Shown: positions 3,611 to 59,944 of the stretch, one piece after another
Layout of the letters: every line of letters starts with the position of its first letter
How positions within the stretch are numbered: the first letter of the stretch is position 1
From: an uncultured Poribacteria bacterium
Lineage (GTDB): Bacteria > Poribacteria > WGA-4E > WGA-3G
Assembly: GCA_958295855.1 (NCBI GenBank)
Contig: OY282383.1
Coordinates: forward strand, 183,178 to 247,177
Reading direction: 5' to 3'
Length of the DNA: 64,000 nucleotides
Notes under the pieces: generated by a model
What the model saw: only the letters and a program-made list of their open reading frames with translations
Told to the model about the DNA's origin: nothing
The model's database searches: none
Made by a program: the position numbers and the translations under genes

Positions 3611-3642
3611 GGTCACGGCACACGGAGTGTGCCTACTACCTT
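3611..3642. repeat. Hairpin module (GGTCACGGCACACGGAGTGTGCCTACTAC) overlapping the 3' end of the RM gene
   Basis: Same family as 14592-14702 and 47276-47392. In the gene's frame it encodes VVGTLRVP plus the stop codon. Confidence 0.8.
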
Positions 3643-26030: not shown

Positions 26031-27116
26031 CTAAGGATAATTGTAGACATTTTCAGACTCTGTGGTGAAGGTATTTACCCCGCTTTGCGGGGCAGATACC
26101 ACCTCATCAGGACTCTGGTTGGCATCCGGTTGTTCGCCCCTCTCACGGTTCGCATTAAATTCGCGCAAAATACAGTTGACAATCTCCTCAGTATACGCTT
26201 GCGCGTCTACATTGTGCTGATTTGCCTCCCAGGCCATCCTCGCTGCTGCCTCGAAGTACTCTGCATGCTTATAGGCATCTAAGATGTCTGTGCCTCGTGA
26301 AAATGTTCCGTGCCCGACCCAATAGAGAATATAGCGCTCTGGGCTGCCGCCATTCTGAAAAAGCCGTAGACTCTCATAAGATAATTCGGGAATACCCGGT
26401 GCCCGCTCTTGCACAAACCCGATGCCGCTAGACGCATCGTATATAATCGGGGTTTCGGGTTCATACCCTCTGAGAAAATTATAAAACAGGTCGGGATGTC
26501 CATGCTCTGTTCGAGAGATTAGGTTCAAGAACTTCGGCTGCAGATGGACAAGTGCATTAAACCCGTGTGGCTCTAGCTGTTCAAAAATGAGCAGGTAGTG
26601 GAACATCTCACTCGTTGGAACGGGTGGTGCAACGCCGTTTGCATGTCGATTCAAAACAGACTGCTCCGGTGTGCCGAAACGCATCCGATAATGCATACCG
26701 TCCGGTTCAACCTCAATGAGCGTTAAATTGAGCGCAGGATGCTCACTCCCAATCATGTCCAAACGCGAACCCGATTTTGTCAGCAGGACGTGTCTCCCGG
26801 CCAGCTCTTTAACGACAATCTGTGGTGGTAATTGGTAACGTGGCGACTCATCATAAGGGATGAGGCATGGGTTCTCAACTGTTTCCGTTAAAACGGCGCC
26901 CATATTGCCAGCAGTTGCCCACAAATATTCGTGAGCGTGTGCATGTGCACCGACCCAGCCCATCTGCCCTATCAAGGTACCACATTCACTGTCAGGTGAA
27001 ATAGGGCGCAGGTCGGGATGATAGCCCCTCTCACGCCAGCGTTCGTAACGATAACTCTGGGGCGGGGGTGCTGTTAACGCATTTATCAAATATGGATTGG
27101 CTAATGTTAAATGCAC
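26031..27116 (-). CDS. Class II aldolase/adducin-like protein (tentative)
   Basis: 361 aa. HAHAHE and GHGTF motifs reminiscent of class II aldolases. The C-terminal tail is encoded by a palindromic element. Confidence 0.35.
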   Translation of the reverse strand: MHLTLANPYLINALTAPPPQSYRYERWRERGYHPDLRPISPDSECGTLIGQMGWVGAHAHAHEYLWATAGNMGAVLTETVENPCLIPYDESPRYQLPPQIVVKELAGRHVLLTKSGSRLDMIGSEHPALNLTLIEVEPDGMHYRMRFGTPEQSVLNRHANGVAPPVPTSEMFHYLLIFEQLEPHGFNALVHLQPKFLNLISRTEHGHPDLFYNFLRGYEPETPIIYDASSGIGFVQERAPGIPELSYESLRLFQNGGSPERYILYWVGHGTFSRGTDILDAYKHAEYFEAAARMAWEANQHNVDAQAYTEEIVNCILREFNANRERGEQPDANQSPDEVVSAPQSGVNTFTTESENVYNYP

Positions 27117-27176
27117 TCGCTGTTCTATTCCTCGCTTAAGATACTCTATATCTTAACTATACCATGTTTACCAGAA

Positions 27177-27790
27177 GATAGCAAGCTTTTCGTCATTCCT
27201 TGCGGAGTAATCAGGTTGCAAGACGCATCGCGCAATGCACTGTAGATCTCGTCGGAGGTTTCTGATGCCTTAATTGTTTGTAGGGGCAGTGCCTTGTGCC
27301 TGCCCTTCCCCTCCGAATCGCAACACTTTTACAAAAAAGTTGAATATTCCGCTGACATGTGGTAAAATTCGTATTTTCGTCATTCCTTGCGGAGAATTCA
27401 GGTCGCAAGACGCATCTGGCAATGCACTGTAGATCTCGTCGGAGGTTTCTGATGCCTTAATTGTTTGTAGGGGCAGTGCCTTGTGCCTGCCCTTCCCCTC
27501 CGAATCGCAACACTCTTACAAAAAAGTCGAATATTCCGCTGACATGTGGTAAAATTCGCCTTTTCGTCATTCCTTGCGGAGTAATCAGGTTGCAAGACGC
27601 ATCTGGCGCTGCACTGTAGCTCTCGTCGGAGGTTTCTGATGCCTTAATTGTTTGTAGGGGCAGTGCCTTGTGCCTGCCCTTCCCCTCCGAATCGCAACAC
27701 TTTTACAAAAAAGTTGAATATTCCGCTGACATGTGGTAAAATTTGCGGCGTAATGGCATTAACCCCCTGCAAAGCAGGGGCAAATACCCT
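27177..27790 (+). repeat. Three tandem copies of a composite unit of about 184 bp, then a palindromic element
   Basis: Tandem periodicity starting at about 27177, 27361 and 27545. Module order: TTTTCGTCATTCCTTGCGGAGTAATCAG; CTGTAGATCTCGTCGGAGGTTTC; GGGCAGTGCCTTGTGCCTGCCC; promoter-like TTGAATATTCCGCTGACATGTGGTAAAAT. Confidence 0.9.
27714..27742 (+). promoter_or_regulatory. Promoter-like element TTGAAT, 17-bp spacer, TGgTAAAAT (extended -10); promoter-proximal copy of three
   Basis: Identical elements at about 27346-27374 and 27530-27558. Oriented toward fumC. Confidence 0.5.
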
Positions 27791-27831
27791 AAAAAAAATT
27801 CCGAAAAATGAAAGGAACAGACAGACATACA

Positions 27832-29217
27832 ATGCGAACTGAAACAGATAGCATGGGCAGCCTCCAGGTCCCAGCCGACCGGTACTGGGGCGCACAGACA
27901 CAACGCGCCCTCCAAAATTTTAGAATCGGCGATGAACGTCTGCCACGCGCGGCGATATGGGCACTCGGCACTGTGAAACAGGCAGTCGCGCACGTGAATG
28001 CGGACCTCGGTTTGCTTGAACCTCGGCTTGCGGATGCAATCAGCACTGCAGCACAGGAGGTTATTGATGGCACATTGGATGACCATTTTCCGCTCCGAAT
28101 TTGGCAGACAGGCAGCGGAACACAGACAAATATGAACGTGAATGAAGTCATTGCAAATCGGGCAATTGAGCAACTGGGTGGCGAAATGGGCAGCAAGCAT
28201 CCCATCCACCCCAACGACCACGTCAATAAGTCTCAATCAACAAACGACGTTTTTCCGACAGCTATCCATTTGGCGCTCTTAAAGCAGATTCGGGAGTTTA
28301 TGTTGCCGCGCCTTAGCGCACTACGAGATGCGTTTGCAGAGAAGGCATCCGCCTTCGAGGAAATTGTTAAGATCGGGCGAACGCATCTGATGGATGCAAC
28401 ACCGCTCACGCTTGGACAGGAGTTCAGCGCCTATACACAACAACTTACTCATGCAGAGACGCGCATAACCGATTCCCTCCCACACCTCTCTGAGCTTCCA
28501 ATTGGCGGCACGGCTGTCGGGACAGGATTAAATACGCATCCAGACTATACGGCGCGCGTGGTGGCGAGGCTGGCGGAGATGACCGGATATCCACTCCAGC
28601 GTGCCTCAAACGCGTTTGAAGCACTTGCATGCAGGGATGCCGTGGTGAGTGCGAGTGGCGCGTTGAAGACGCTGGCGGTTGGCCTGTTTAAGATAGCAAA
28701 CGACATCCGGTGGCTCGCCTCGGGGCCGCGGTGTGGACTGGGTGAGTTGCAGTTGCCTGAGATGGAACCAGGAAGCTCAATTATGCCGGGGAAGGTGAAT
28801 CCAACACAGTGTGAGGCTGTGACAATGGTGTGTGCACAGGTGCTCGGGAACGACACGACGCTGACGTTTGCAGGTGCCAACGGGGCGTTGCAACTGAATG
28901 TGTTTATGCCTGTGATTGCGTATAACGCTTTGCAATCCATACAACTTCTCGGTGACGCGTGCGAATCATTCCGCAAAAACTGTGTGGAAGGCATCGTGCC
29001 GAACAAGGAAGCGATTGGGCAGCACCTCTCGGAATCGCTGATGCTCGTTACGGCGTTAACACCGCATATTGGCTACGATAGGGCAGCAAAGGTAGCACAA
29101 TACGCGCATGAGCAGGGCTGCACGCTCCGCGAAGCTGCTATTGCCCTGGAGGTATTAACGGCAGAGGCGTTTGATGAATTTGTCGTGCCGGGGGACATGA
29201 CGAAGCCGAATCTATAA
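27832..29217 (+). CDS. fumC: Class II fumarate hydratase
   Basis: ORF 27808..29217. Start set at [27 protein letters not shown] by alignment to the canonical FumC N-terminus. [16 protein letters not shown] signature. Confidence 0.9.
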
Positions 29218-29396
29218 TTGGTTGCAGGCTGTCGACATACTGCCCATCAGCCCCCCGCACCCCGACACAGGCAACAATGAAAAATTTTTTGTCGTGCCGG
29301 GGGACATGACGAAGCCGAATCTATAATTGGTTGCAGGCTGTCGACATACTGCCCATCAGCCCCCCGCACCCCGACACAGGCAACAATGAAAAATTT
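29181..29396 (+). repeat. Tandem duplication of about 108 bp spanning the fumC stop codon
   Basis: The segment 29181-29289 is repeated almost exactly at 29290-29396. The first copy includes the last 12 codons of fumC. Confidence 0.85.
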
Positions 29397-29399
29397 ACT

Positions 29400-29752
29400 G
29401 ATTTTTCATTTAGGGTAATGCCCCGCAAAGCGGGGAATCACCCTGTCACCTGTGTTGCGACGTGCATTCAGATGTAACCTTAGCCCCAGCGGGGCGACAT
29501 GTGTATAGCCGCGCATGCCGACCCTCCTCCTTAGCCCCAGCGGGGCGACAGGTGCTAAGGGTGCATAAGAAACCTCCGACGACATCTACTGTAGCGGCAG
29601 TGCCTTGTGCCTGCCCATCTACATCGTCAGAACACTCCTGCCAATGGTATTTGCCCCTGCTTTGCAGGGGTTTCATACCAAGTTGTGAATGGCCAATGAA
29701 CAACTTTTTTATTTCTTACTTATGCTGATTACTCCGCAAGGAAAGACAAAAA
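29400..29752. repeat. Mosaic of intergenic repeat modules (palindromic element, GCCCCAGCGGGGC hairpin x2, GGCAGTGCCTTGTGCCTGCC, CTCCGCAAGGAAAGACAAAAA)
   Basis: Module families recur across the window. Confidence 0.8.
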
Positions 29753-32700
29753 TTAGTCATCATCGTCACTTGCGGTATCAAGCGGTTGTCCCTGATAGGC
29801 AACTTCTATGTTCTGGAAGTCGGAGAAGCCGCTTCCCGCTGGGATAAGCCTACCGAGGATGACGTTTTCTTTTAGCCCGAAGAGCCTGTCGGTTTGACCG
29901 CTCACTGCCGCGTCTGTGAGCACTTTGGTCGTCTGCTGGAAGGAGGCCGCTGAGATAAAACTATCTGTGCTCAAGGAGGCTTTGCTGATGCTCTGGAGTA
30001 TGGGTTCTCCTGTGGCGGGTGTGCCGCCTGCGGTGTCGATGGCACTGTTTTGACGCTGGAACTTGTCGCGGGCGACTTCTTCGTTCGGGTAGAAGGCTGT
30101 ATCGCCGGACTCGGTGACGCGTATCTTTGTCAGCATCTGCCGGACGATGGCTTCGATATGCTTGTCGTTGATGACTCTTGCACCGTAGACTTTCTGGACT
30201 TCATCGACAAGGTATGCCCACACGGCTTCTTCGCCTTCGACGGGTACGCCGTTTATGAGGGTACGCCCGATTCTTAAAATATCGTGCGGGTTGAGGAATC
30301 CATCTGTGAGCGGTTGGCCTGCATCTACCCAGTCGCCTTCGGTGACTCGCCGTTTTTCATCAGGGATGGCATAGACTCTGCTGGTATGCCCTTCATCTAT
30401 GATGCGGTATGTGGGTACGCCTGCCTTGGTGCCTACGGCTTGTACGTGTCCCTCAATTTCGGCGATTTCTGCGGCATTTTCTCGCTTGGGACGCCGGGCT
30501 TCAAACAGTTCTGTGACGCGGGGTATGCCTGCTACGATGTCTCGGTTCGCGGTTTTCTCATGCAGTTCTGCGAGGGTGTCTTCTGCATCAATGCTATCCC
30601 CTTCTTCGACGGAGAAGGAGTAACCGAGAGGTATGAGATGCGGCACGTAAGCACCCTGACTGTTCACGATTTCGATATGCATGCGCATGTCGAGCTCGGC
30701 TGTTTCAAAGCCGGCGTATTGTGCAAAAGTTGTCTTGTATGCTTCTTCAGTCAATACCTCGCCGACGGTATGCCCACAATTGGGATGGAAGACATCCGTG
30801 ACGGTGTAGGTTTTCCGCTGGTTCTCCTTCTGTAGCTTGCGGTATTCCTTTTCGCCTAGAATGTGCCCAGGGTCGAACTGAGGGACAGAGGAATCTGTCC
30901 TTTCGTCCCGGGTGACCTGATTGACGCGTTCGACATCAAACGCTTTGTACTGCCGCTGGTATGATCGGTATTCCTTTTCAGTTAACTCGGTTCCGACTTC
31001 CAACTGCAGGTCGGGGTGATGTACACTAACGACGACATATAGACTCGTGAATTTTCCCGAAATTTCGGGATCTTCTTTACGCAACGACTTATACTGGGCT
31101 TCGCTTAAGCGCTGTCGCGATTCGGAGATCGCTCCTACCTCCTCGTAGTAGCGTTGCACTTCAAACCCCTTGTACTGTCGGCGGTGTGCGCTTGACGCTT
31201 TTTGTGTCAACAATTCACCAGGCTGTAGCGGGCACTCGGGGTGATTGACAGCAGTCACGTGATAGAGTCGTTCCGCCTCAAAGGGTCCCATTGTATTAAC
31301 AGCGGAGGAGGCTGTGATACCTGGGAAAGTGGCTCTGAACTGTTTCTCCTCACCATCGCTGAGCAAGTCACCTGGTTTGAGGGTGCAGTCCGGATGATGC
31401 ACATGGATGACGCGGTGCTTCAACTTTTGAACATTGAACCCAGGAAACCGCTTGTGTTCCTTACGTGCCGCGTCTGTTGTTAGCACGTCGCCGACCTTGA
31501 GGGGGAACTCGGGGTGATAGACTGCGGTGACAACATGCTTCGGGGCATCCAATTCTTTAACCTGAAACGCCCGATACTTTAGACGGGCCTCCTCGTAGGC
31601 GCGTTCGGTTAATTCTCTTCCAATCTGATACTCGGCTGGATCCAGCCCCGAGTTTGCGTCTCCTGTTATCTCAGTATGCATAACGTAGACAGGCTTTGAC
31701 TCCAAGTCAAAGGGGGTAAGCCACGAGGCGATGTCTGAAGCCGACACTTCCTCTCCAACCTCATAAGGGAAGTCTGCCCGAGTGCGCTCGGTTATGCGGT
31801 AGACACGTTCGAAGTGAGAATCCCGGGCGGAGTGGGTATGTTCCCCGCTTTGCGGGGAGAAGGGTTTTGCCCTGCTTTGCAGGGAATTACCCTCTTCACC
31901 CTTTTCAGACTCGCCTCCCTGGGTCGCGCCGACTGAGGCAAGTTCTGTCTCTGTAAAGAGCTGCCCTGTCTCTGAATCTCGGGAAAGCCATTCACCATCA
32001 AACCCTGTGTGCATCTTGGCCTTCAACTCATCTGCTTTTTCGAGTGTGAGCAGCTCCCTCGGTGTAACAGCAATGTCGGGGTGAAGCACTTGCGTCACAC
32101 GGTATTTCTGCGTTACAAAGCGGCCGAAGCCGTATTGCTTCCGGGCCTTGTCATATTGTGCCTGTGACAGCCGGGCGCCTTCCTGAAGGTGGCAGGCATG
32201 CTCCGATACAGCTGCCTCACTTAACTTTTCAACATGTTGAAAAAACGTCTCTTCAATCTCAGGCTCAAGTGAATCAATCTCACTGACGAGGGTTTCACTT
32301 GGTTGACGTACATTGCCGTATTTTTCTGTAAATTGTCGATACTCATCAGAGCTGCTGAACTTTTGGTGGCCTTCTCCGGGTTGTTCCGCATGGCAACCAA
32401 TGCAGAGTGCCGCCAGGTCCCTGGGTTCGTTATGCTTCGTTCCCCGCCGATGGTGGACATGGAGAAACTGTTTATCATCCTTAAGGGCTACACCACACTG
32501 CTCGCACTGCCAACCGGCCCTATCACGATATTTCTCTGAGAGAAACTTCCAAGCGTCTGATGAATAATCAAAATGCTGTCCGAGAACGCTATAACCGTTA
32601 TTTACTTTAGCACGCTCCGATACAGCAGTTACCTCATACTGCCAGGTCTCGGTCTCAAAGCCTTTATAACGTTGTGCGTTTTCAGTGTACTGCTTCTCAC

Positions 32701-35700
32701 TCAACAACTCACCTGGGAGCAATGGGCACTCAGGGTGGTTAACCTGGGTGACCTTGTAAGCAGGTGCATCAAGCTTTGCGCTAGAGGGATGAACCCCCTG
32801 CTTTGCAGCGGCAGACTGACCGATTGTGTTCATCATATCTACTTTGTTGTCGGTTTCCCATGCAGAAGATGGACTGTCGGAGCCGATGGCTATCCAGAGA
32901 TTTCCTTCTTGGCGCACTGTGCTGCCGGGGCGGAAATCGCGGAACCGCACGGTTCCCTTAACTTTCGCAAGAACTTTGCGCTGGCGCGCTTCTGAAATGG
33001 CCTCAACAGCCCCACCGGTGTGGAACGTCCGCATCGTTAGCTGCGTGCCGGGTTCACCAATGGATTGTGCAGCGATGATACCGATGGCTTCGCCGACATT
33101 GACAAGATTGTTGGTCGTCAAATCAATGCCGTAGCACTTTGAACAGACACCTTCGTCGGCTTGACAGGTGAGTACGGAACGCACTTTTACGACTTTGATG
33201 CGCGCGGCCTCAATCTGTGTGGCTTCTTCCTCGGATATCAATTGCTCGCTGGCTTTAAGCACTTGGCCTGTATCTGGGTGGATGATGTCTTCGGCGGCGG
33301 TTCGCCCTCTGATTTTAAATGCAAGGCTGCCGCCTTCAGTTGTAAACTTCTGAATGCTGTTCAGTGTCTTGCAATCTTCAGTGGTAACGCGGACATCTTG
33401 GGCAACATCTACTAACTTCCGGGTTAGATACCCGGATGCGGCGGTTTTCATTGCGGTATCTACTAAGCCTTTGCGCGAGCCGTAGGTGGAGTTGAAATAG
33501 TCTAACACATCTAAGCCTTCGCGATAGGAGGCGGTTATCGGTGTAGAGAGAATGTTGTTGCTCTGATCGGATTTCAAGCCGACAATTGCACTAATTTGCA
33601 TAAATGGGTTCTTCCGCGCGCGCGCTCCACTATCCGCCATAATATGCACTGGACTGAAACCTTTGACGGTTTCAGCGCCTATCTCTACGCCATCAGCATC
33701 TACGTTTGGATGAATCTTACGCGAGTCGCCGCGTTCAACGAGTGATGTCTCTAATTCGGGTAAGGCGGAGAACATCCTTTTCTCAACCTGTTCAATCGCT
33801 TCGAGCCAGATGCGAATTCGCTCATTCTCTAACTCGCCTGTGTCTGTAGCAGAGGTTGTCGCAAGGAGGTTATCCACTTCGGACTGGGCTTTGCTCACTA
33901 AAGCATCCCGGTTGTCGGGCCTGAGGTAATCTGTTATGCAGGGCGATATGCCGCTCAGGGTTGCATAGTGGAAGGCAAGTTTTTGGATTTCCTCAAGCAT
34001 GTTGACTGTAACACGCGTTCCTAATTCGTTGAAACAGTCGTAGACTATCTTGGATAACTCGCGTCCGCTGGCTTCGGCGTTGAAAAAAGGCACCTGCTGC
34101 CGGGAATGCTCGTCTATCCACGCATCCTCGGACGAACTTCCTTTGATTTTCTTGAGTTTATCTGGCAGTACTTCGTTGAAAATAACTCTGCCTACTGTCG
34201 TGAGTATGGGGCTGGCTGTGGCACGCGGCCTGCTACTTTCGTGCTTGCTACTTTCCCCAAAAAAGAGTTGGAGGCTATCGTGTAGTTTGAGTTGGCCGGC
34301 TGCGTGCGCGGCGATAACTTCTTCTGTATTTGAATAGCGACGGTGGTACCAAGGTTTTTGGCGGAGCTCATCCAGTCGCGATTCGGAGATGGCTCCTACC
34401 GATTGCGCGATAAACTCATGCAACAACTTTGCATCCTCAGCATGTCCCGGCAGTTCCTTCGTCAGGAAACTCGGCCCTAGCACCATGTCAAGCTCCGGTA
34501 CTGCAATTGGACCGCCGTGGGATGGCTTGAGGATATTATGACTGCTGAGCATTAGCAGCTTTGCCTCTGCCTGTGCCTCTACTGTGAGTGGCACATGCAC
34601 TGCCATCTGGTCGCCGTCAAAATCGGCGTTGAATGCCTTACACACAAGGGGAGGTATCCGTATCGATTTGCCTTCTACTAACACTGGCAGAAATGCCTGA
34701 ATGCCAAGCCGATGCAACGTGGGTGGGCGATTCAGTAACACGGGATGGTCGGCTATGACTTCCTCTAAGACTTCCCAGACAGGTGAATTGGACTCCACAT
34801 GCTCGGCGATGTGCTTCGCACGTTTTATCGTCTGCGTATAGTTATACGCTTGCAGCCTCTCGATAATAAATGGCTTGAACAATTCTACGGCCATTCGCTT
34901 GGGCAAACCGCATTGGTGGAGTCCCAGTTCGGGGCCGACGACGATGACGCTTCGCCCAGAGTAATCGACGCGTTTTCCGAGCAGATTCTGACGGAAGCGC
35001 CCGACTTTGCCTTTGAGGATATCGGAGAGTGACTTGAGCGGTCGGTTGCCAGGGCCGGCAACACGCCTGCCGTGCCGCCCGTTGTCAAAGAAGGCATCAA
35101 CGGCTTCTTGTAACATCCGTTTTTCGTTGCGCAAAATGACTTCGGGGGAACGGAGCTGTATTAACTTACGCAGCCGGTTGTTACGATTGATGACGCGGCG
35201 ATACAGATCGTTCAAGTCGCTTGTGGCAAAACGCCCGCCTTCGAGGGAAACAAGGGGCCGTAAGTCCGGGGGAATGACGGGTATCACATCCATAATCATC
35301 CACTCGGGGCGCTGTTCAGATGCGGCAAAGTCAGACAACTGTTTGAGCTGTTTGGATATCTTGAGCTTTTTCTGATGGCTTGTTGTTTCCGAAAGCAGTT
35401 CGGTGAGTTTCTCTTTCTCTGCCTGCAGGTCGATGCTGTTCAGAATCTCAGAAATGACTTCGGCGCCAGTCCCTGCGCGAAATTGACCGGGGTACTGGTG
35501 TTTCGCTTGCTCGTATTCTAATTCTGTTAGGACCTGACGCGGCTGCAGCGGACAGTCCGGGTCGCTGACGGATACAACAACAAAGGCTTCAAAATAGATG
35601 ATGCGTTCTACTTGGCGTGAGGAGAGATTACAAAAGGTGCCGATTCGTGACGGTATGCCTTTGAAGAACCAGATGTGGGAAACTGGGGCGGCGAGCTGGA

Positions 35701-36058
35701 TATAACCGAGGCGCTGCCTGCGTACGCGCTGCTGCGTTACCTCAACTCCACACCGGTCGCATATCACTCCCTTGTGCTTTATCCGTTTATATTTCCCACA
35801 ACTACACTCAAAGTCTTTTTGCGGGCCGAAGATGGCTTCGCAGAATAGCCCTTCCGGTTCTGGCCGGAGGGAGCGATAATTAATGGTTTCTGCCTTCCTC
35901 ACTTCGCCGCAGTTACACCTTCCCATCTCCGGACAGATAAAGGGTTCTCTTGTGGATTGGGATGTGCTACGACGCTTACAACAGGTTTGCTTGGCTAATG
36001 CTTTTATCTCCTGGGGTGAGGCTATTTTTATCGAAATACTGTCAAACGCTGTTTTCAT
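29753..36058 (-). CDS. rpoC: DNA-directed RNA polymerase subunit beta' with a very large trigger-loop insertion (SI3-like, about 800 aa) containing SBHM-type repeats, an HNH motif and in-frame repeat elements
   Basis: 2101 aa. Canonical beta' blocks: NADFDGDQM and MRTFHTGGA, then an insertion, then GIPRVTELFEARRP. RBS AGGAA within the upstream repeat. Confidence 0.95.
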   Translation of the reverse strand: MKTAFDSISIKIASPQEIKALAKQTCCKRRSTSQSTREPFICPEMGRCNCGEVRKAETINYRSLRPEPEGLFCEAIFGPQKDFECSCGKYKRIKHKGVICDRCGVEVTQQRVRRQRLGYIQLAAPVSHIWFFKGIPSRIGTFCNLSSRQVERIIYFEAFVVVSVSDPDCPLQPRQVLTELEYEQAKHQYPGQFRAGTGAEVISEILNSIDLQAEKEKLTELLSETTSHQKKLKISKQLKQLSDFAASEQRPEWMIMDVIPVIPPDLRPLVSLEGGRFATSDLNDLYRRVINRNNRLRKLIQLRSPEVILRNEKRMLQEAVDAFFDNGRHGRRVAGPGNRPLKSLSDILKGKVGRFRQNLLGKRVDYSGRSVIVVGPELGLHQCGLPKRMAVELFKPFIIERLQAYNYTQTIKRAKHIAEHVESNSPVWEVLEEVIADHPVLLNRPPTLHRLGIQAFLPVLVEGKSIRIPPLVCKAFNADFDGDQMAVHVPLTVEAQAEAKLLMLSSHNILKPSHGGPIAVPELDMVLGPSFLTKELPGHAEDAKLLHEFIAQSVGAISESRLDELRQKPWYHRRYSNTEEVIAAHAAGQLKLHDSLQLFFGESSKHESSRPRATASPILTTVGRVIFNEVLPDKLKKIKGSSSEDAWIDEHSRQQVPFFNAEASGRELSKIVYDCFNELGTRVTVNMLEEIQKLAFHYATLSGISPCITDYLRPDNRDALVSKAQSEVDNLLATTSATDTGELENERIRIWLEAIEQVEKRMFSALPELETSLVERGDSRKIHPNVDADGVEIGAETVKGFSPVHIMADSGARARKNPFMQISAIVGLKSDQSNNILSTPITASYREGLDVLDYFNSTYGSRKGLVDTAMKTAASGYLTRKLVDVAQDVRVTTEDCKTLNSIQKFTTEGGSLAFKIRGRTAAEDIIHPDTGQVLKASEQLISEEEATQIEAARIKVVKVRSVLTCQADEGVCSKCYGIDLTTNNLVNVGEAIGIIAAQSIGEPGTQLTMRTFHTGGAVEAISEARQRKVLAKVKGTVRFRDFRPGSTVRQEGNLWIAIGSDSPSSAWETDNKVDMMNTIGQSAAAKQGVHPSSAKLDAPAYKVTQVNHPECPLLPGELLSEKQYTENAQRYKGFETETWQYEVTAVSERAKVNNGYSVLGQHFDYSSDAWKFLSEKYRDRAGWQCEQCGVALKDDKQFLHVHHRRGTKHNEPRDLAALCIGCHAEQPGEGHQKFSSSDEYRQFTEKYGNVRQPSETLVSEIDSLEPEIEETFFQHVEKLSEAAVSEHACHLQEGARLSQAQYDKARKQYGFGRFVTQKYRVTQVLHPDIAVTPRELLTLEKADELKAKMHTGFDGEWLSRDSETGQLFTETELASVGATQGGESEKGEEGNSLQSRAKPFSPQSGEHTHSARDSHFERVYRITERTRADFPYEVGEEVSASDIASWLTPFDLESKPVYVMHTEITGDANSGLDPAEYQIGRELTERAYEEARLKYRAFQVKELDAPKHVVTAVYHPEFPLKVGDVLTTDAARKEHKRFPGFNVQKLKHRVIHVHHPDCTLKPGDLLSDGEEKQFRATFPGITASSAVNTMGPFEAERLYHVTAVNHPECPLQPGELLTQKASSAHRRQYKGFEVQRYYEEVGAISESRQRLSEAQYKSLRKEDPEISGKFTSLYVVVSVHHPDLQLEVGTELTEKEYRSYQRQYKAFDVERVNQVTRDERTDSSVPQFDPGHILGEKEYRKLQKENQRKTYTVTDVFHPNCGHTVGEVLTEEAYKTTFAQYAGFETAELDMRMHIEIVNSQGAYVPHLIPLGYSFSVEEGDSIDAEDTLAELHEKTANRDIVAGIPRVTELFEARRPKRENAAEIAEIEGHVQAVGTKAGVPTYRIIDEGHTSRVYAIPDEKRRVTEGDWVDAGQPLTDGFLNPHDILRIGRTLINGVPVEGEEAVWAYLVDEVQKVYGARVINDKHIEAIVRQMLTKIRVTESGDTAFYPNEEVARDKFQRQNSAIDTAGGTPATGEPILQSISKASLSTDSFISAASFQQTTKVLTDAAVSGQTDRLFGLKENVILGRLIPAGSGFSDFQNIEVAYQGQPLDTASDDDD
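32380..32515 (-). other. HNH nuclease motif embedded in the rpoC trigger-loop insertion
   Basis: Motif: CEQCG, then LHVHHRRG, then N, then LCIGCH, spaced as in HNH domains. No intein splice-block signatures nearby. Confidence 0.6.
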
Positions 36059-36462
36059 ATTTTCGCTATTCCTTGCGGTGTAATCAGGTTGTAAGGTTCA
36101 TCGAGGGTTACACTGTAGATCTCGCTGGAGGTTTTCGCTATTCCTTGCGGAGTAATCAGGTTTTCGCTATTCCTTGCGGTGTAATCAGGTTGTAAGGTTC
36201 ATCGAGGGTTACACTGTAGATCTCGCTGGAGGTTTTCGCTAAAAGGGTTCGAAGGTGCCAAGAATTTTGACACCTTGTTCCTGTCTGTAATTTGCGGAGA
36301 ATTCAGCATGGGCAGGCACAAGGCACTGCCCCTACAGATACAAGCCTTGCATCAAAAACCTCCGACGAGATCTCTAATGCGATGACAACTACATAATGCC
36401 AATGGTATTTGCCCCTGCTTTGCAGGGGTTTTATACCAATTCGAGTTCTCCGCAAGGAATGA
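36059..36462. repeat. rpoB-rpoC intergenic mosaic: two copies of TTTTCGCTATTCCTTGCGGTGTAATCAGGTTGTAAGGTTCATCGAGGGTTACACTGTAGATCTCGCTGGAGG, plus GGGCAGGCACAAGGCACTGCCCCTACAG and a palindromic element
   Basis: Direct reading of the sequence. Provides the rpoC SD and the rpoB stop codon. Confidence 0.85.
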
Positions 36463-39400
36463 CTAAAGGTCTGAGTCGCGATTGAGTGTCACGTTCAGAC
36501 CAAGGCTCTGGAGTTCTCGCACGAGCACGTTAAACGATTCGGGCGTGCCGGGCGGGTTTGGGTTCAGCCCCTTAACTATGGATTCATAGATTTCCGATCT
36601 GCCTGCCACGTCGTCCGATTTGAGGGTGAGCATCTCCTGGAGCGTATGCGCAGCGCCATAGGCTTCAAGTGCCCACACTTCCATTTCACCGAGTCGCTGG
36701 CCGCCATGTTGCGCCTTACCGCCCAGAGGTTGCTGGGTGACAAGCGAGTAAGGGCCTGTGGAGCGCGCATGCATCTTGTCTGCTACAAGATGGTTCAGTT
36801 TAAGGAAATAGACGTAGCCGACTGTGACTTCTTGGGCAAAGGGTTCACCTGTCCTGCCATCATAAAGTACGCTTTTCCCTGTCTTTTTACTGCGTTCGGG
36901 GAGGTTCGTTTTTCCGAGCAGTTCAAAGATTTCAGTCTCTGTTGCTCCGTCAAATACGGGGGATTCTGCGCGTATGCCTAATGCGTGGCACGCCCATCCG
37001 AGGTGAATTTCTAAGATTTGCGCGACATTCATTCGTGATGGGACGCCTAAGGGGTTCAGCACGATTTCAACGGGTGTGCCATCTGGCATATAGGGCATAT
37101 CTTCAGCTGGCAGGATTTTTGCCACAACGCCTTTATTGCCATAACGGCCTGCCATTTTATCGCCAACGGAAATGGGACGTTTACTCGCGATATAAACTTT
37201 GACGCGTTTGATAACACCGGGTTTGAGTTCATCTCCCATCTCCAATTGCTTGAGGGCGCGTTCTTTCTCCTCTGTGTAGGCGGCTATCCTGCCTTGCGCC
37301 ATCTCCTCAACGCGGCGAATGTGTTCCATTGCGGCAGCATCCGTTACGCAAACGGATGATAACGCTATGCCAGGTGTGTCTAATAGCTCAGCTGTCACTG
37401 TGTCACCCGCAGCAAACGACGTTGGGGCAGCACTTTGTTCGGAATTCCCGCCCTGCCCCTTTGCCTCTTCACTGCTTTGCTTCCCGCCCGGTTTCCCATC
37501 ATGGGCAACCAGGAGGATAGCCTCCGCGTTGGTATGTTCCCCACTTTGCTTCCCGCCCTGCCCCTTTGCCTCTTCACCCTTTTCCCCATCGTGCCTAACC
37601 TGTGCCACTACAGGCAATGCAAGTTCACAACCAAGGAGCATGTTGCGTATTTCTTCGTCCTTCCGGTGGCGTATGGATGCGATGTGCGTCCTCCACGTCT
37701 CCTCGCTCTGCTTACGTTTGGATTCATAGCGCAATTCTTCAATTCTTGATGCGCCTGTTTCCGAACGTGTCCAGCCGCCGCGGCGTTGCAATCCATCTGG
37801 CTTTCGGGAAAACACTTTGACATCAATTACTATGCCTTCAACGCCGGGGCGGATGTAGGTGGAGGCATCGCGGACATCTCGTGCTTTTTCGCCGAAGATG
37901 GCGTGCAGCAGTTTTTCTTCGGGGCCATACTCACTTTCGCCTTTGGGCGTAATTTTTCCCACGAGGATACTGCCGGCACTGACAACACTGCCAACGCGGA
38001 TGATGCCTTCCTCATCAAGCTGCAAAAGGCGTTGCTCGCTCATGTTCGGAATGTCGCGCGTTATCTCCTCTGGGCCCACCTTCGTTTCGCGTGCCTCTAC
38101 TTCGACTTCTTCAATATGAATAGAGGTAAAGGTGTCCTTGCGGATGAGGGTTTCACTAATGAGGATAGAGTCCTCATAGTTGTGCCCGCCCCAGGGCATA
38201 TAGGCGCACAAGATATTTCTGCCGAGGGCGAGTTCACCTCCGTCGGTGGATGTGCCGTCGGCAATAACATCGCCTGCTTGCACTTTATCGCCTACAGAAA
38301 CGATTGGATGCTGGTGGATACAGGTGCCACTGTTACTGCGCTTGAAAGTCTGGAGTTTGTACTGGTCGTATCCCATTTCGCTAAATCCATGCTCGCCGGT
38401 GTCGGTATGCAGCACTTCGCCGGTGTGTATGAGGATTTCGTCAGCGGAGATACTTGCGACGGTGCCGCTGCGGATGGCGGTTCGGAGGGCTCCGGAGTCC
38501 AGTGCGGCGCGGGTTTCCATGCCTGTAGCTACAAGAGGGGCTTCCGGACGGATGAGGGGGACGGCTTGGCGTTGGTGGTTGGCTCCCATCAATGCGCGGT
38601 TCGCGTCTTCGTGCTCGAGGAACGGAACAAGGGAGGCAGAAACGCCAACTATCTGTTGCGGCGCGATGCCAACATAGTCAATTTCAGTGGATTTCGTTTC
38701 TTTGAATTCTATGACGTCGCCCTCTTTGGCATCGTTCCAGCGTCGCATGGCACGGACAGAATAGCCATGGCGGTTTTTCTTTCCTGCTTTATGGAAAGCA
38801 TCTGCGGATGCAATGGTACAGCCCAGCTCTGCATCTGCAGTCAAATACTCAATCCGGTCAGTGAGCTTACCCTCAACAATGACTTGATAGGGCGTTTCCA
38901 AGAACCCGTAGCGATTGACGCGTGCGAATGTAGCGAGCGATACAATCAGCCCGATTGAGGGCCCTTCTGGGGTTTCAAGCGGACATACACGCCCGAAATG
39001 CGTTTCGTGAACGTCGCGGACAGCTGCGGTTGCCCTGTCGCGATGTAGTCCGCCGGGCCCGATTGCGGAGATGCGGCGTTTGTGCGTCAACTCATCCAGG
39101 GGATTGATTTGTTGCATAAACTGCGAGAGTTGGTTAGAGCCAAAAAACTCACGGAGTGCCATCATGAGTGGTTTGGGGTTCACCAATGCGCCGGGTGTTG
39201 CTTTGGCGCGGTCCTTGAGGATATCGACAGCACTGAGGCGTTCGCGTGTCGTTCTACGGATTTGGAATAATCCCATTCTGAATTGGTTTTCTAGCAGTTC
39301 CCCGATAACTCTGACGCGCCGATTTTCGAGATTGTCCTGGTCGTCCTTGGGTACAAGTTTGTTCTGCACCTGTATGAGGTATGCCAGTGTTGCGGTGATA

Positions 39401-41013: not shown

Positions 41014-41039
41014 TTGATGCGGTCTCCTTTTGGTACCGG

Positions 41040-41739
41040 ACTCTGGTGGTGGGCAGGCACAAGGCACTGCCCGTACGGCGCAATGAAATCCCGAGAATAA
41101 AAAAGTTGTTTGCTTTTCGCGCACAACTTGGCTTGCAAGCTTCGCCAAAAAGTGGTGGGCAGGCACAAGGCACTGCCCCTACGGACGCGCCGCCTTTTAA
41201 CCTATTGGCAATAGCATAACAGAATATTATACACTATAATTAGGGGAAAGTCAAGAAAAAATGCATTTTTGTTATTCCTTGCGGAGTAATCAGCATAAGT
41301 AAGAAATAAAAAAGTTGTTCATAAAAATTCACAACTTGGTATGAAACCCCTGCAAAGCAGGGGCAAATACCATTGGCAAGACACATCCAGCAATGCACTG
41401 TAGCTCTCGTTGGAGGTTTCTTATGCAACCTTTCGGGCCAATGGCTGCCCGCCCACCCGTTTCCGTATTGTGGCTAAAAAAGGGGGTGCTTGTTTTTGAC
41501 GTTAATCAAGCTAGGGCATTTAGTTTTCAGTAGTTTTGAGTAAGGGGCGTGGTTGGGTGAGGATTAAGAATTTTCGTCTATGCCTAGTATTTTGATTGGA
41601 TTATGTGGTGTTAATGGCATTGGAGCTCTCGTCGGAGGTTTTGGTCTATGTCTAGTATAATGTGGTATAAAGGTTGACACACCACGTTAACTTGGTATAC
41701 TGTATTAAGGTACGGAAACCCCGTGCTACGGGAGACAAA
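41040..41739. repeat. Repeat-dense intergenic region (GGGCAGGCACAAGGCACTGCCC x2, palindromic element, CCCGCCCACCCGTTTCCG, GGGCATTTAGTTTTCAG, and others)
   Basis: Module families shared with other intergenic regions. Confidence 0.8.
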
Positions 41740-42270
41740 ATGGGAACAATTACAGTACCAGCACCTGTCAAAGCTATCATCGGTGTGTTGACAGGGGACG
41801 CGCTTCTTCTGCCAACTGTCTATCAGGAATTGACAGCTCAGCTCGGGCACATTGACTTCACGAGTGAACTTTTGCCTTTCACCAGCACAACCTATTATGA
41901 AGCTGAGATGGGACGAGGGCTCCAACGGCAGTTTATTAGCTTTGAAAGGCTCATCGATGCAGGGACATTGGCAGAGATGAAACTGTTTACAAATCAGGTG
42001 GAGCAGGCGTTTGCAGAAGAGAAAACCTCGCGACGGCGCGTCAATTTAGATGCAGGTTATGTGTGCTCAGCGAAGTTGGTACTCGCCTCAACGAAAGATC
42101 ACGCGCACCGTATCTACCTCCGCGCCGGTATCTATGCGGAAATGACGCTCCGATTCTATCGCAAAACCTTCCAACCGTGGGAATGGAGTTATCCTGACTA
42201 CCGTTCCCCGGACTACATCGCTATTTTTAATCACATTCGCACAATCTATAGGGAGCAACTCAACGCATGA
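41740..42270 (+). CDS. Hypothetical protein (possibly DUF4416-like)
   Basis: ORF 41674..42270. Start moved to MGTITVPAP (AAAATG). The stop overlaps the next gene's ATG (ATGA). Confidence 0.35.
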   Translation: MGTITVPAPVKAIIGVLTGDALLLPTVYQELTAQLGHIDFTSELLPFTSTTYYEAEMGRGLQRQFISFERLIDAGTLAEMKLFTNQVEQAFAEEKTSRRRVNLDAGYVCSAKLVLASTKDHAHRIYLRAGIYAEMTLRFYRKTFQPWEWSYPDYRSPDYIAIFNHIRTIYREQLNA

Positions 42271-43574
42271 ACAGATATTATGAGAGAAACCTCACCGCTA
42301 GTCCCAGTGACTCGGCTGGAAGACAAGAAGGGTGGAAGAAGGGAAAAAACACCGCCCCCCAACCTTACTGTCTTCCATACTGTCTGCCATTTTTCCAATC
42401 TTCAAAAATACTAGTCTGTTGCATCATTTGTGCTTTTTGGTTAGTGGTATTTACCCCTGCTTTGCAGGGGCAGATACCCGGTCAAGGTTTTGCCGGGGCG
42501 CAATCGACTGAGTCACCCCGAGCGCGGGCGCGCGAGCTCGGCATCTATATCGGGAGCCTTCCTACCGGTGAGTACAACGCAATCACCGACGTGCCCGGGG
42601 TCAAAGTAGGACACGTCACCCTGAAGCAGGGGGAGTCAATTCGCACTGGTGTCACCGCTATCCTTCCGCGCGATGATATTTGGGAAGCGCGTCTGTTTGG
42701 CGCAGCACATACCATTCATGGCAACGGTGAAGCCACCGGCATCGCCCGAATTAATCAAGCCGGGTGGATTGAGTCCCCGATTTTGTTGACAAATACCCTG
42801 AGTGTCGGGGCTGTTCACGATGGTGTTGTCCGGTACATTGTCAAGCGGTATCCGGACAATAACATTGTGCTGCCGATTGTGGCAGAGTGTTACGATGGCG
42901 GCTTGAACGACATCAGCGGGCTCCATGTAACTGCACAGCATGCCATTGAATCCATTGAGAACGCCACCTCCGGTAAGGTAGCAGAGGGCAGTGTAGGCGG
43001 CGGTACAGGTATGCGATGCTACGGGTTCAAAGCCGGTATCGGTACTGCCTCGCGGGTACTCCCACCAAACAGGGGCGGATGGAAAGTCGGGGTACTCGTC
43101 AACGCAAACGGCGGACGACGACATCAGTTACGCATTGATGGCGTGCCGGTGGGTAAGGTACTTGATGATGCCCAGCAGAACCCAGGCAGGGACGGCTCGT
43201 TTATCATCGTTATCGCGACGAACGCGCCGTTAACGCATCGGCAGTTGAAACAGCTGGCGATGCGTGCAACGCACGGCCTCGCCCGCACAGGCACACCAAG
43301 CACAGATGGCAGTGGTGAGTTCGTTATCGCGTTTTCTACCGCCAATATTTTTCCACGCGGCACAGAAACAGGTACCTTTCACATCCAGATGGTAGTCAAC
43401 TCACGCTTGAATTCTCTCTTTCAAGCTGTCATTGAGGCAACAGAGGAGGCTATTGTGAATTCAATGACGATGGCAACCACAACCACTGGCCGCAACGGCA
43501 GAACAATGCACGCGATTCCATTGGATGGGTTGCAACAGGTGATGCAGCAGTTTTCGTCATTCCTTGCGGAGTAA
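42267..43574 (+). CDS. Peptidase family S58 / P1 (DmpA-like L-aminopeptidase / D-Ala esterase-amidase family)
   Basis: 435 aa with a DmpA/ArgJ-like fold signature. A palindromic element sits inside the N-terminal hydrophobic region. The C-terminal FSSFLAE* is encoded by a repeat module. Confidence 0.55.
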   Translation: MNRYYERNLTASPSDSAGRQEGWKKGKNTAPQPYCLPYCLPFFQSSKILVCCIICAFWLVVFTPALQGQIPGQGFAGAQSTESPRARARELGIYIGSLPTGEYNAITDVPGVKVGHVTLKQGESIRTGVTAILPRDDIWEARLFGAAHTIHGNGEATGIARINQAGWIESPILLTNTLSVGAVHDGVVRYIVKRYPDNNIVLPIVAECYDGGLNDISGLHVTAQHAIESIENATSGKVAEGSVGGGTGMRCYGFKAGIGTASRVLPPNRGGWKVGVLVNANGGRRHQLRIDGVPVGKVLDDAQQNPGRDGSFIIVIATNAPLTHRQLKQLAMRATHGLARTGTPSTDGSGEFVIAFSTANIFPRGTETGTFHIQMVVNSRLNSLFQAVIEATEEAIVNSMTMATTTTGRNGRTMHAIPLDGLQQVMQQFSSFLAE

Positions 43575-43826
43575 TCAGCATGGGTATGAAACCCCTGCTT
43601 TGCAGGGGCAAATACCATTGGCAGGATAGTTCTGACGGGCAGGCACAAGGCACTGCCCCTACAGTAGATCTCGTCGGAGGTTTCTGATGCAAGTTTTTTA
43701 ATGCTTAATTAGCAGGGAACACACTACAACTCATGTCGGAGGTTTCTGACGCAATGTTCGTAGGGGTGGTGCCTTGTGCCTACCCACATACTGGAGTATA
43801 TCGCGATTCGGACATCGCTCCTACGT
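43555..43826. repeat. Intergenic mosaic (TTTTCGTCATTCCTTGCGGAGTAATCAG, palindromic element, GGGCAGGCACAAGGCACTGCCCCTACAG x2, GATTCGGACATCGCTCCTACG)
   Basis: Module families shared across the window. Confidence 0.85.
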
Positions 43827-45953
43827 CTACCTCTGTCCGCCGGGGGCAAGTGCCGCCGGTACCACCTCATGATGTGAAAACTCAAGCGTGAACGCCCCGC
43901 GCCCCTGCGTCATTGAGCGGAGCTGGGTTGTATATTGGAACGTTTTTGCTAACGGGATAAAAGCACTGACAAAGTTGAACGCACCTTGCGTACCGCTTTC
44001 GTTAATCTGGGCGCGGCGTGCATTCAGGTCGCCGATAACCTTTCCGACGTGTTCATCTGGTGCCGTGATATGTATCCGCATAATCGGTTCAAGGAGCAGG
44101 GGTTTCGCCGTTCTGACCGCGTTTTCAAAGGCGAGCACAGCCGCCGCCTCAAAGGCGACTTCTGAGGAATCTGTTGAATGACAGGAACCACCGGTGAGCG
44201 TTACCTTGATGTCTTGCAGTGGGTATCCGATGAGCGCACCGCTTCCCATCGCACCTTTGAGCGCGTTCTGAATGGCAGGAATGTATTGCCGTGGAATCTG
44301 CGTCTCATCCGTCTCATCCGCAAACTGAAACCCGCCGTCTCGTTCCAATGGGGCAACAGTGAGTACCACATCGCCATAAATGCCTTCCTCATCTGTTTTA
44401 TGGATGTGTGTGCCTCGCGCTTCAGCAGGCGTGCTGATAGTCTCCCGATATGCCACCTGTAGTTTGCTCACGCGCGCGTTCACACCAAACTCGCGGCGCA
44501 TCCGGTCGGTGAGAATTTCTAGGTGGAGTTCGCCCATCCCAGAGATAATCCGTTGCCCCGTCTCTTTATCAATACCGACGGTGAACGTCGGGTCTTCGTC
44601 CATTAATTTTTGGAGTGTCTCCTCCAGTGTGTCTGCATCACTGGCGCGTTCAGGTTCAATTGCGATGGAGATAACGGGCTGTGGAAAAGTGATGGATTCT
44701 AACAGGATAGGATGCTTCGCATCTGCCAATGTATCGCCTGTTTTCGTATCCCGAAGCCCGACGAGGGCAACGATGTCTCCTGCGTAAGCGGCATCACAAA
44801 CCGCCTCTTTGTTGGCATGCATCTGTAGAATGCGGTTCACCCGCTCCCGTTTGCCGGAACCGACGTTATAGATGACTTCCCCACGTTTCAGGGTGCCTGA
44901 ATAGATACGGCAATAGACCAGTTTGTCCACAGTGGGGTGGCTTGCGACTTTAAAGGCTAACGCTGCAAACGGGGCAGTATCATCTGAGTAGCGGGTGGTA
45001 TTTGCCCCCGCTTTGCGGGGCAGATTCTTGGTGGCTTTATTGTGGCTGGAGGTTGTTCTCACAGAAGAGGTATTTGGCACTTCACCTTCAATTGGGGGTA
45101 GGTCGACAGGCGAAGGCAGAAAATCAATGATTGCATCAAGCAGGGGTTGAACGCCCCGATTTTTGAGGGAACTTCCGCATAATACAGGGACTAACGTTCC
45201 CTTCAAAGTAGCAGTACGAATGCCTGCCACTAACTCGGCGGAGGTTATCTCCTGGCCCTCCAAGTATTTTTCAAGCAACGCGTCCTCTTCAACAACGACG
45301 CTCTCAAAAAGGGTTTCTCGGGCGAGTGCCACTTCGGCGTGAAACTCATGTGGAATTTCGGATTCTTGATAGGTCTGCCCGAGGTTTGCCGCATCCCAAT
45401 GCATCGCCTTCTGTCTTACCAGGTCAACAACCCCTGCGAAATCGGTTCCCTCACCAATTGGCAATTGGAGGGGCACCGGATTGGTGCCGAGTCGCTCCTT
45501 CATCATCTCAAGCACGCGAACGAAATTGGCACCGACCCTATCCATCTTATTGACGAAGATGATGCGCGGTACATCGTAGCGTTCAGCTTGATGCCAGACA
45601 GTTTCTGACTGTGGCTCCACACCGCCAACAGCACAAAAAAGTGCAACAGCACCATCTAACACGCGCAAGGAACGTTCCACTTCTACTGTGAAATCGACAT
45701 GGCCGGGCGTATCAATCAGGTGAATCGCGTGTTCTCTCCAGAAACAGGTTGTTGCGGCGGCGGTAATCGTCACCCCGCGTTCTCGTTCTTGCGCCATCCA
45801 ATCCATTTCTGCAGTGCCGTCATCTACTGCACCAATCTTATGCTTTTTGCCAGTATAGAAGAGAATTCGTTCGGTTGTGGTTGTTTTGCCTGCATCGATG
45901 TGCGCTGTAATACCGATGTTGCGCACGTTTTCAATAGAATATTCGCGTGCCAT
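43827..45953 (-). CDS. fusA: Elongation factor G (fusA-type; could be a paralog, as no rpsL/rpsG precede it)
   Basis: 708 aa with canonical G-domain motifs: [21 protein letters not shown]. Carries an in-frame insertion from a palindromic element in the G' region. Confidence 0.9.
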
Positions 45954-47275: not shown

Positions 47276-47392
47276 GGTCACGGCACGCGGAGGGCTCCTA
47301 CGACTTTGGTCACGGCACGCGGAGCGTGCCTACTACTTTGTGCCTACTACTTTTGGTCACGGCACGCGGAGCGTGCCTACTACTGTTTCCAT
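47276..47392. repeat. Tandem hairpin modules (GGTCACGGCACGCGGAGCGTGCCTACTACT x3, one degenerate) overlapping the 3' end of the DUF1156 gene
   Basis: Same family as 3611-3642 and 14592-14702. Encodes VVGTLRVP plus the stop codon. Confidence 0.85.
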
Positions 47393-53900: not shown

Positions 53901-54070
53901 TTTCTGAAATGTAAGAGCAGATTTTCATATCTGCCGTTGCCGGCATGCCGGCTAAAAAATGTGAGAAATAAAAAAATTGCAAAGGTATTTACCCCTGTTT
54001 ATAGGGGCAGATACCCCATTTGGCCATTCACAACTTAGTGAAAATAGACAGAAAAAAGGCAGTTGCGGTA

Positions 54071-56272: not shown

Positions 56273-56330
56273 GTATCTGCCCCTGTAAGCAGGGATATTC
56301 CTCACGAGCAAAACACTTTGAGAGAAACAC

Positions 56331-59846: not shown

Positions 59847-59944
59847 TGGTATCTGCCCCTATAAACAGGGGTAAATACCTTTACTGATATAGCCCTAAAT
59901 CCTGCCTGTAAAAGGCAGACAAAGAGGAGATCAAATAACCGATT

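Follow-up and report, generated by a model that had tools for sequence, protein, structure and literature searches.

Short palindromic repeats, probably mobile, inserted in frame into rpoC and other housekeeping genes of a Candidatus Poribacteria sponge symbiont

A 64-kb stretch of DNA from Candidatus Poribacteria, an uncultivated sponge symbiont, was analyzed here; this stretch, hereafter the window, lies on a 5.50-Mb contig and contains rpoC, the gene for the β' subunit of RNA polymerase, in which two copies of a short hairpin-forming repeat are read as part of the protein. We consider it very probable that these copies belong to a mobile palindromic repeat family that has inserted in frame into rpoC. 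Orthologous sites that are empty in some genomes and filled in others, preservation of the reading frame, and predicted disorder of the inserted residues were all shown, and each is laid out below; coordinates of the features are collected in Table 1.

The original prediction, made from the letters of the window, placed two palindromic copies of one family in frame within rpoC on the minus strand, and this is what was found: both cores are exact (CCCTGCAAAGCAGGG at 31870-31884 and CCCCGCAAAGCGGGG at 31843-31857), they are read in the same frame since they lie 27 nt apart, and the open reading frame (ORF) is intact. The sequence on which the prediction was based is present, but its coordinates had been given as 31845-31892 and are corrected here to 31835-31891. 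This 57-nt minus-strand segment (GGT..ACC, 19 codons) is translated as GNSLQSRAKPFSPQSGEHT and sits, in a linker, approximately 390 residues into a trigger-loop insertion of about 825 aa that extends between the helix anchors GEPGTQLTMRTFHTGG (aa 1001) and IVAGIPRVTELFEAR (aa 1841). The insertion had been labeled β' SI3, a name that fits by its position between the trigger-loop helices; in a comparison with the sandwich-barrel hybrid motif (SBHM) fold of SI3, matches to solved β' insertions were marginal.

The nearest usable genomes for comparison were reached indirectly, through the 90% cluster of the neighboring aldolase and through EF-G; a protein search with the SI3 region of rpoC gave a best identity of approximately 57% and nothing nearer. 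Among named proteins, the nearest matches belong to Candidatus Poribacteria. Two of these genomes, L060 and L061, come from the same ENA sample as the window (ENA ERZ19489113; contigs of 5.51 and 3.98 Mb), are 90-98% identical to it in DNA and 92% in rpoC, and contain 8-9 hairpin cores per 21 kb. The other three, L062 (Logan; rpoC 83% identical), L058 (TARA; rpoC 82% identical) and L064 (TARA; EF-G 91% identical), contain none. More distant loci came from a GTDB scan, in which both anchor motifs of the linker (GFDGEW and FxRVYRIT) were found at 34 of 56 loci (55 Poribacteria); the distance between the motifs is 72 aa in the window vs. 48-63 aa in the other loci (74 aa in L048).

An alignment of rpoC orthologs had been proposed as a check, and the results showed that relatives without the repeat family lack the peptide and have an empty site: in L062 and in orthologs of the L007 type the linker runs directly into RDSHFERVY or RDANFKRVY. 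When GNSLQSRAKPFSPQSGEHTHSA is taken out of the window protein, the remainder reads KGEE|RDSHFERVY and matches SGEE|RDANFKRVY of L007, L008 and others. At the DNA level, L062 is empty at this site (...GCATCTGATGCCGACAGGGATTCTCAC), L060 and L061 hold a 48-nt variant which shares the right part of the insert (GCAAAGCG[G/C]GGAACATACCCACTCC), and the window holds 66 nt with two perfect cores. Both hairpins are broken in the L060/L061 version, and the insert differs strongly between these genomes and the window while the flanks are nearly identical. Element 1 of the window (Table 1) is of an AGGGT...ACCCT subtype that also occurs at 29408-29448 and in a 33-nt insert private to L060, whereas the right half of element 2, GCAAAGCGGGGAACATACC, is common to the rpoC of L060/L061 and the rpoB of the window.

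Structure prediction of the region had likewise been suggested, with a surface loop as the expectation, and the model agrees with this. In an AlphaFold2 model of rpoC aa 1285-1500 (mean predicted local distance difference test score, pLDDT, 77.9), residues 97-128 of the model (aa 1381-1412) have pLDDT values of 31-43 and both flanks exceed 90; elsewhere in the model only the N-terminal 5 residues fall below 50. The inserted rpoC residues are therefore predicted to form a disordered linker. Translation through the insertions would be visible as junction-spanning tryptic peptides, predicted to be GEEGNSLQSR and AKPFSPQSGEHTHSAR for rpoC and NLPR / AGANTTR for EF-G.

The two rpoC elements are members of a family that is abundant in the window. 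Matches to the pattern CCCYGCAAAGCRGGG number 19, of which 17 are exact and 2 have a single mismatch, compared with 0.03 expected from shuffled sequence, and a covariance model built for the family located 24 loci, i.e., a density of about 0.4 copies per kb. The core is a 15-nt hairpin, CCCYGC-AAA-GCRGGG, with a G+C-rich 6-bp stem and an AAA loop, and is extended by an A+T-rich outer stem, GGTAT...ATACC, to a unit of 33-39 nt. From the aligned copies and their flanks a 33-nt palindrome was obtained, GGTAT-(TTGC|GAAAC)-CCCYGC-AAA-GCRGGG-(GCAA|GTTTC)-ATACC, alongside a second subtype, AGGGTAAT...ACCCT. The structure model of the family has a 15-bp stem, in which 12 distinct copies have UA at the Y/R pair (columns 17-25), 5 have CG and none is unpaired there, showing that the hairpin is kept by compensatory change. 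Folded as DNA, the canonical unit reaches -17.4 kcal/mol (z = -8). Rfam contained no family matching the hairpins, the sole match in the window being one tRNA. Among the covariance-model loci is a sub-family with the core CCCCTGTTTACAGGGG. The core of this sub-family is one base shorter (CCCCTGT-TTA/AAA-CAGGGG) between the same GGTAT...ATACC arms, and copies lie at 53980-54019, 56268-56305, 58147-58186 and 59844-59883; one overlaps the stop codon of fabG and another stops 1 nt before the start of hom.

The family had been described as otherwise intergenic, which did not hold: 7 of the 24 loci (about 29%) fall within coding sequences and 17 are intergenic. As 84% of the window is coding, copies are nonetheless depleted from coding sequence, and many of the intergenic ones lie within 70 nt of a gene end. 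The peptides encoded by the genic copies (LQSR/PQSG, AKQG, PRKAG, P[AC]LQGQ) are read in at least four combinations of frame and orientation, and thus no single conserved peptide is associated with the element.

In-frame insertions with empty counterparts were found at further sites. A third, degenerate copy in rpoC (site 1) is of the T/A type and is read in another frame than the two described above, as SAAAKQGVHP (AAKQGVHPSS). Site 1 is empty in L058 and L062 (GCC AAC CGC), and in L060 and L061 it is filled by 36 nt that contain a perfect C/G core and are translated as HKAITPQSGEHT, so that the element versions differ between the window and these two genomes though the flanks are identical. 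In the class II aldolase-family protein, the insert near the C-terminus separates the codons for D and F. The window, L060 and L061 all have it, and it is a clean gap relative to six 349-aa orthologs (93-95% identity) as well as to the DNA of L058 and L062. For both fusA, which encodes EF-G, and the dmpA gene the site is empty in L064, with an identical start codon context in the latter case. The EF-G and FabD insertion sites are also gaps in alignments to solved homologs: the fusA insert falls in a 21-aa gap relative to Thermus thermophilus EF-G (1DAR), and the fabD insert is an exact 12-residue gap relative to E. coli FabD (1MLA), a comparison limited to a distant homolog.

A larger insert of approximately 51 aa, recognized against L058, L062 and L064, occupies a hypervariable loop of rpoB and is built of modules related to the hairpin family. 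Positions 37531-37584 of the window, within this insert, match the rpoC-site inserts of L060 (5423-5477) and L061 (5414-5468) with 1 mismatch in 55 nt, the shared sequence being GAAAAGGGTGAAGAGGCAAAGGGGCAGGGCGGGAAGCAAAG[T/C]GGGGAACATACC. This suggests either an exchange between rpoB and rpoC or a composite mobile module. The rpoB ORF listed for the window has 1567 aa; relative to the start that is conserved in L064 (VKKQPRISF...), its 5' end (41014-41166) is 51 codons further upstream, and the true protein probably has about 1516 aa.

Table 1. Positions in the window of the hairpin copies, the in-frame insertions and rpoC (CM, covariance model).
Feature	Coordinates	Strand	Description
rpoC (β')	29753-36058	-	Intact 2101-aa ORF with Pfam Rpb1 domains 1-5
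Insertion at rpoC target site	31826-31891	-	66 nt, 22 codons, GNSLQSRAKPFSPQSGEHTHSA, relative to orthologs with a GEE|RD junction
Hairpin element 1	31861-31893	-	Complete 33-nt palindrome, AGGGTAATT-CCCTGC-AAA-GCAGGG-CAAAACCCT; core 31870-31884
Hairpin element 2	31835-31857	-	Core CCCCGCAAAGCGGGG followed by right arm AACATACC; left arm non-canonical
rpoC site 1, third degenerate copy	32786-32821	-	GGTCAGTCTGC-CGCTGCAAAGCAGGG-GGTTCATCCC; CM 30.6 bits
Class II aldolase-family gene (26031-27116), near C-terminus	26070-26105	-	In-frame 36-nt insert, EVVSAPQSGVNT
fusA (EF-G)	44997-45032	-	In-frame 36-nt insert, ACCAAGAATCTG-CCCCGCAAAGCGGGG-GCAAATACC; 12 residues
DmpA/peptidase S58 gene (42267-43574), signal-peptide region	42444-42482	+	In-frame 39-nt insert, VVFTPALQGQIPG
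fabD (57767-58756)	58142-58186	+	Sub-family copy, core CCCCTGTTTACAGGGG; adds 12 aa, GANGINPCLQGQ; CM 33.2 bits
rpoB hypervariable loop	37414-37602 (about)	-	Insert of about 51 aa, QVRHDGEKGEEAKGQGGKQSGEHT...SEEAKGQGGNSEQSA; modules related to the hairpin family
17 intergenic copies	15869-61617 (range)		Starts: 15869, 27752, 29408, 29642, 36400, 41335, 43580, 47174, 50463, 53980, 56268, 57389, 58818, 58929, 59844, 60265, 61577

The window, L060 and L061 also differ from one another by single elements. Private one-element indels comprise 33 nt found in L060 only, 39 nt in L061 only and 62 nt in the window only. The 39-nt events fall at one position of a larger intergenic repeat, of which filled and empty versions exist, making it a recurrent landing site. 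Such precise presence/absence differences among genomes 90-98% identical show that the family, which depends on its hairpin, has been mobile recently and has entered coding DNA repeatedly. The units have GGTAT/ATACC termini. Because the aldolase insertion is not accompanied by a target duplication, a REP-associated tyrosine transposase (RAYT) or another tyrosine transposase of the IS200-IS605 type is the likeliest candidate for the mobilizing enzyme; a RAYT-type mobilization step is nevertheless possible rather than probable. Target-site duplications were of no consistent length at the aldolase, fusA, dmpA and intergenic sites.

The family is restricted to three co-occurring genomes, i.e., the window genome, L060 and L061, to which matches of the covariance model were confined among the 12 sources searched. 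With one mismatch allowed, the hairpin core was absent from the rpoC loci of 55 GTDB species-representative Poribacteria (about 22 kb each), and with L058, L062 and L064 the core-free Poribacteria loci number 58. Two scans of JGI metagenome contigs with the element patterns returned zero matches, a plasmid database showed no similarity, and a literature search on palindromic repeats in Poribacteria retrieved only CRISPR-related papers.

Several points weigh against insertion of a mobile element as the explanation, or at least limit it. The prediction had called for a clean indel of about 33 nt per copy; element 1 is indeed a complete 33-nt unit that is polymorphic in close genomes, but the left end of the rpoC insertion can be placed in two ways: with an ancestral GEE|RD junction its length is 66 nt, and with an EKGEE module counted in it is 78 nt. 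The longer version (31829-31906, EKGEE...HS) may be the correct one, because the window's rpoB contains, one mismatch apart, the L060/L061 version together with GAAAAGGGTGAAGAG upstream of it. Of the repeat-free relatives whose linker is long, the closest is L058, and it carries 30 aa of unrelated extra sequence at this position; the rpoC linker is thus a general hot spot, and some of the added length could have been there before the elements arrived. Direct repeats at the borders vary from site to site: the aldolase insertion has none, fusA may have 5 nt (CCACC), and one of the intergenic insertions has 7 nt (GCCAATG). No Y1/RAYT transposase was present among the 38 window genes scanned against Pfam, so the mobilizing mechanism is a putative one. 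The GTAG hallmark of repetitive extragenic palindromic (REP) sequences is absent from the consensus, GGnATT..CCCCTGCAAAGCAGGGG..AAATACC. Finally, the elements are hardly freer of stop codons than random 33-mers (4.5 vs. 4.2 open frames of 6), and the idea of a stop-codon-free "design" was dropped.

Some of these points are what would be expected if no transposition had taken place and the copies had instead arisen and spread through replication switching its template at hairpins, together with ectopic recombination or gene conversion from one existing copy to another, the rpoC block being copied from, e.g., rpoB. Besides the failure to find either a transposase or a consistent target duplication, the 55 nt of the window rpoB that are one position off the L060/L061 insert would fit such an origin, as would the different element versions at rpoC site 1 between genomes with identical flanks. 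Yet precise insertions of 33, 36 and 39 nt are seen at unrelated sites without flanking homology, as transposition gives, and conversion requires a copy already at the site; as a replacement for transposition this account appears rather unlikely, and the two processes are not exclusive. Co-option is a different proposition, in which the peptide or the mRNA/DNA hairpin would be selected as a flexible linker, as a translational pause site aiding β' folding, or as a regulatory structure. An insert is kept in all three genomes, both cores are perfect in the window, and the stretch of rpoC mRNA that spans the insert has a computed folding energy of -42.6 kcal/mol (z = -3.4). Against this stand the strong divergence of the insert between nearly identical flanks, the broken hairpins of L060/L061, the repeat-free relatives that function without an insert, the predicted disorder of the residues and the different frames in which the element is read in other genes, and we regard co-option as very improbable.

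An artefact, either a repeat mis-joined into rpoC during assembly or sequencing or a pseudogene copy, would have to be considered in any repeat-rich genome from a metagenome assembly, and the original prediction had named a sequencing chimera as the alternative. This was not borne out: the gene has 2101 uninterrupted codons with all conserved domains, 8983 nt of the sequence recur with 100% identity on a second contig of the ENA assembly, a homologous insert occupies the same codon position on the two other multi-Mb contigs (L060 and L061), and the frame is kept by the insertions in all five other genes. Almost no credence can be given to it.

With mobile insertion as the favored explanation, the following sequence of events is proposed. 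Very short palindromic mobile repeats would have proliferated in this lineage of Candidatus Poribacteria, to which they are specific, with copies made in trans by an enzyme that may recognize the single-stranded hairpin. Under the selection that we infer, copies in genes would persist only where they add a multiple of three nucleotides, introduce no stop codon and fall in a loop that is variable and exposed to solvent. Such a survivor would be the block in rpoC, whose two elements lie in a disordered linker joining folded modules within the trigger-loop insertion; it is predicted from its sequence to be transcribed and translated as 22-26 extra residues. The encoded peptides would have no function of their own. 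Later, copies may decay or be overwritten through in-frame deletion and gene conversion between copies; both processes are put forward as contributors because of the 55-nt rpoB/rpoC match and the broken hairpins of L060/L061.

Besides the hairpin elements, the trigger-loop insertion of the window contains a 414-nt in-frame insertion (rpoC aa ~1147-1284, about 32213-32626, minus strand) with the motif CxxC...HVHH...N...CIGCH (CEQCG...HVHH...N...CIGCH). It is bordered by a 13-nt direct repeat, GCTGTATCGGAGC, and is absent from the 92%-identical sisters L060 and L061 as well as from L062 and L058. Homologs that stand alone have 150-233 aa, and for one of these the source gives the name McrA. No Pfam match was obtained for the 144-aa rpoC insertion at E <= 0.001, HNH appearing only at E = 0.92 (0.017 for L007), and in PDB comparisons of an AlphaFold2 model (pLDDT 72) the top matches were HNH domains at E = 0.02 or weaker. 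Since the Pfam HNH match is below threshold, the assignment as HNH-like draws on the motif, the homologs and weak fold matches. A homologous insert is present at the same rpoC site in the distant relative L007, while L005 (OY764016.1) and L051 (OZ220722.1) have an unrelated nuclease domain in frame at this site (REase_MTES_1575, PF18741, E = 4e-27; DUF559), and the site is unoccupied in about 50 other Poribacteria. That two nuclease families occupy one site in so patchy a way resembles intein-free mobility of the homing type, and the insertion of nuclease domains without inteins at one fixed site could represent an in-frame "domain homing". That the giant trigger-loop insertion is a landing pad, which fixes unrelated mobile DNA (hairpin repeats in its linkers, nuclease domains) as translated parts of the enzyme, is a further idea but a distinctly unlikely one. 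Should the HNH domain be active, a DNA nuclease would be part of RNA polymerase itself.

Much of the non-coding DNA in the window consists of repeats. The spacers at 29218-29752, 36059-36462 and 27117-27807 are three to seven times longer than in the repeat-free L058, L062 and L064. The spacer between rpoC and fumC has 535 nt in the window, 233 nt in L060 and 63-71 nt in L062 and L058, and the spacer between rpoB and rpoC has 404 nt compared with about 120 nt in the repeat-free relatives. A larger intergenic repeat family of approximately 80-190 nt (...AGATCTACAGTG...CTTGC.A|CCTGA.T.CTCCGCAAGGAATGACGAAAA...) is found at 27200-27760, 29179-29396, 36060-36320, 43560-43680 and 58780-59000, and is partly tandem, 109 nt being duplicated at 29179-29396 and units of 81 nt repeated at 36060-36241. 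Divergence from L060/L061 across 16146-38069 is mosaic: DNA identity is 90-93% in rpoB-rpoC and 95.6-98.4% in the adjoining fumC-to-PRK block, which hints at recombination or separate histories for the RNA polymerase operon. The sole transposase-like gene of the window, a YhgA-like gene with a Transposase_31 domain (101-1243), adjoins no hairpin copy. Other genes of mobile or defense type encode a Type ISP restriction-modification enzyme (3613-6720), a DUF1156 methylase-like protein (47357-50164) and a Uma2 endonuclease-like protein (62584-63153), and no gene of this type is placed so as to suggest a link to the hairpin copies.

The findings bear on several wider questions. RNA polymerase β and β' and EF-G of this bacterium provide a second, independent and well-documented case in which selfish palindromes have entered core informational proteins, with occupied and vacant sites known from near relatives, and the family is a minimal natural system for learning which loops of essential proteins tolerate 11-13 added residues. 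In addition, rpoB, rpoC and fusA are phylogenomic markers, and in work with metagenome-assembled genomes inserts of this kind can skew both the alignments and the gene calls.

Among known systems, the Rickettsia palindromic elements (RPEs), which the original prediction had named as the precedent, are an apt comparison: they show the same behavior, with repeats in frame in several housekeeping genes. As described in PMC10969869, citing Ogata et al. (2000, Science 290:347; 2002), RPEs are palindromic repeats of about 150 nt, nearly half of which lie in frame in metabolic genes, each with a conserved peptide; further repeats fused internally to protein genes are described in PMC3184786. As in these accounts (PMC10969869; PMC3184786), the present family is likewise a selfish palindromic family of a host-associated bacterium, in frame in unrelated housekeeping genes at fold-compatible positions, with its other copies intergenic. 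It differs in size, RPEs having about 105-150 nt compared with the 33-39 nt of the hairpin units, which add 11-13 residues. It differs also in reading, the RPE being presented in PMC10969869 as one conserved peptide in one frame and the element here being read in at least four frame/orientation combinations, and in placement, with about 29% of copies in genes vs. nearly half for RPE-1 in that account. The host phylum, Poribacteria, is different as well; it is these described features that set the two apart. As the phylum is unrelated to Rickettsia, the RPE phenomenon would seem to be recurrent and not a rickettsial oddity.

The family also resembles REP and REPIN sequences mobilized by RAYT (PMC3184786, PMC3116915), which are G+C-rich imperfect palindromes of about 35 nt with high copy number, located near gene ends and lineage-restricted. 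REPs are, however, extragenic by definition, and the present family has no GTAG, no RAYT in the window and no regular inverted doublets; a REP-sized unit within genes blurs the "extragenic" part of that definition. Like MITEs (miniature transposable elements with inverted repeats) that have in-frame fusions, such as the QMITEs of Coxiella (PMC5896051) and the pneumococcal BOX/RUP/SPRITE and Anabaena MITEs (PMC3184786), it is non-autonomous, has terminal inverted symmetry and occasionally lies in ORFs. MITEs, in contrast, usually have 50-400 nt and target-site duplications, whereas the unit here is far shorter, with duplications that vary between sites. In Nostoc and other cyanobacteria there are small dispersed repeats, 21-27 nt long, hairpin-forming and mobile, which Elhai et al. 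(2008, Genome Res 18:1484) reportedly recognized from orthologous sites with and without a copy; the present repeats differ from them in sequence and phylum. Together, because the family is REP-sized, lacks a conserved frame, belongs to another phylum, and has neither GTAG nor a RAYT in the window, it is not strictly an RPE, a REP or a MITE, and is a new example of "protein-coding palindromic repeats".

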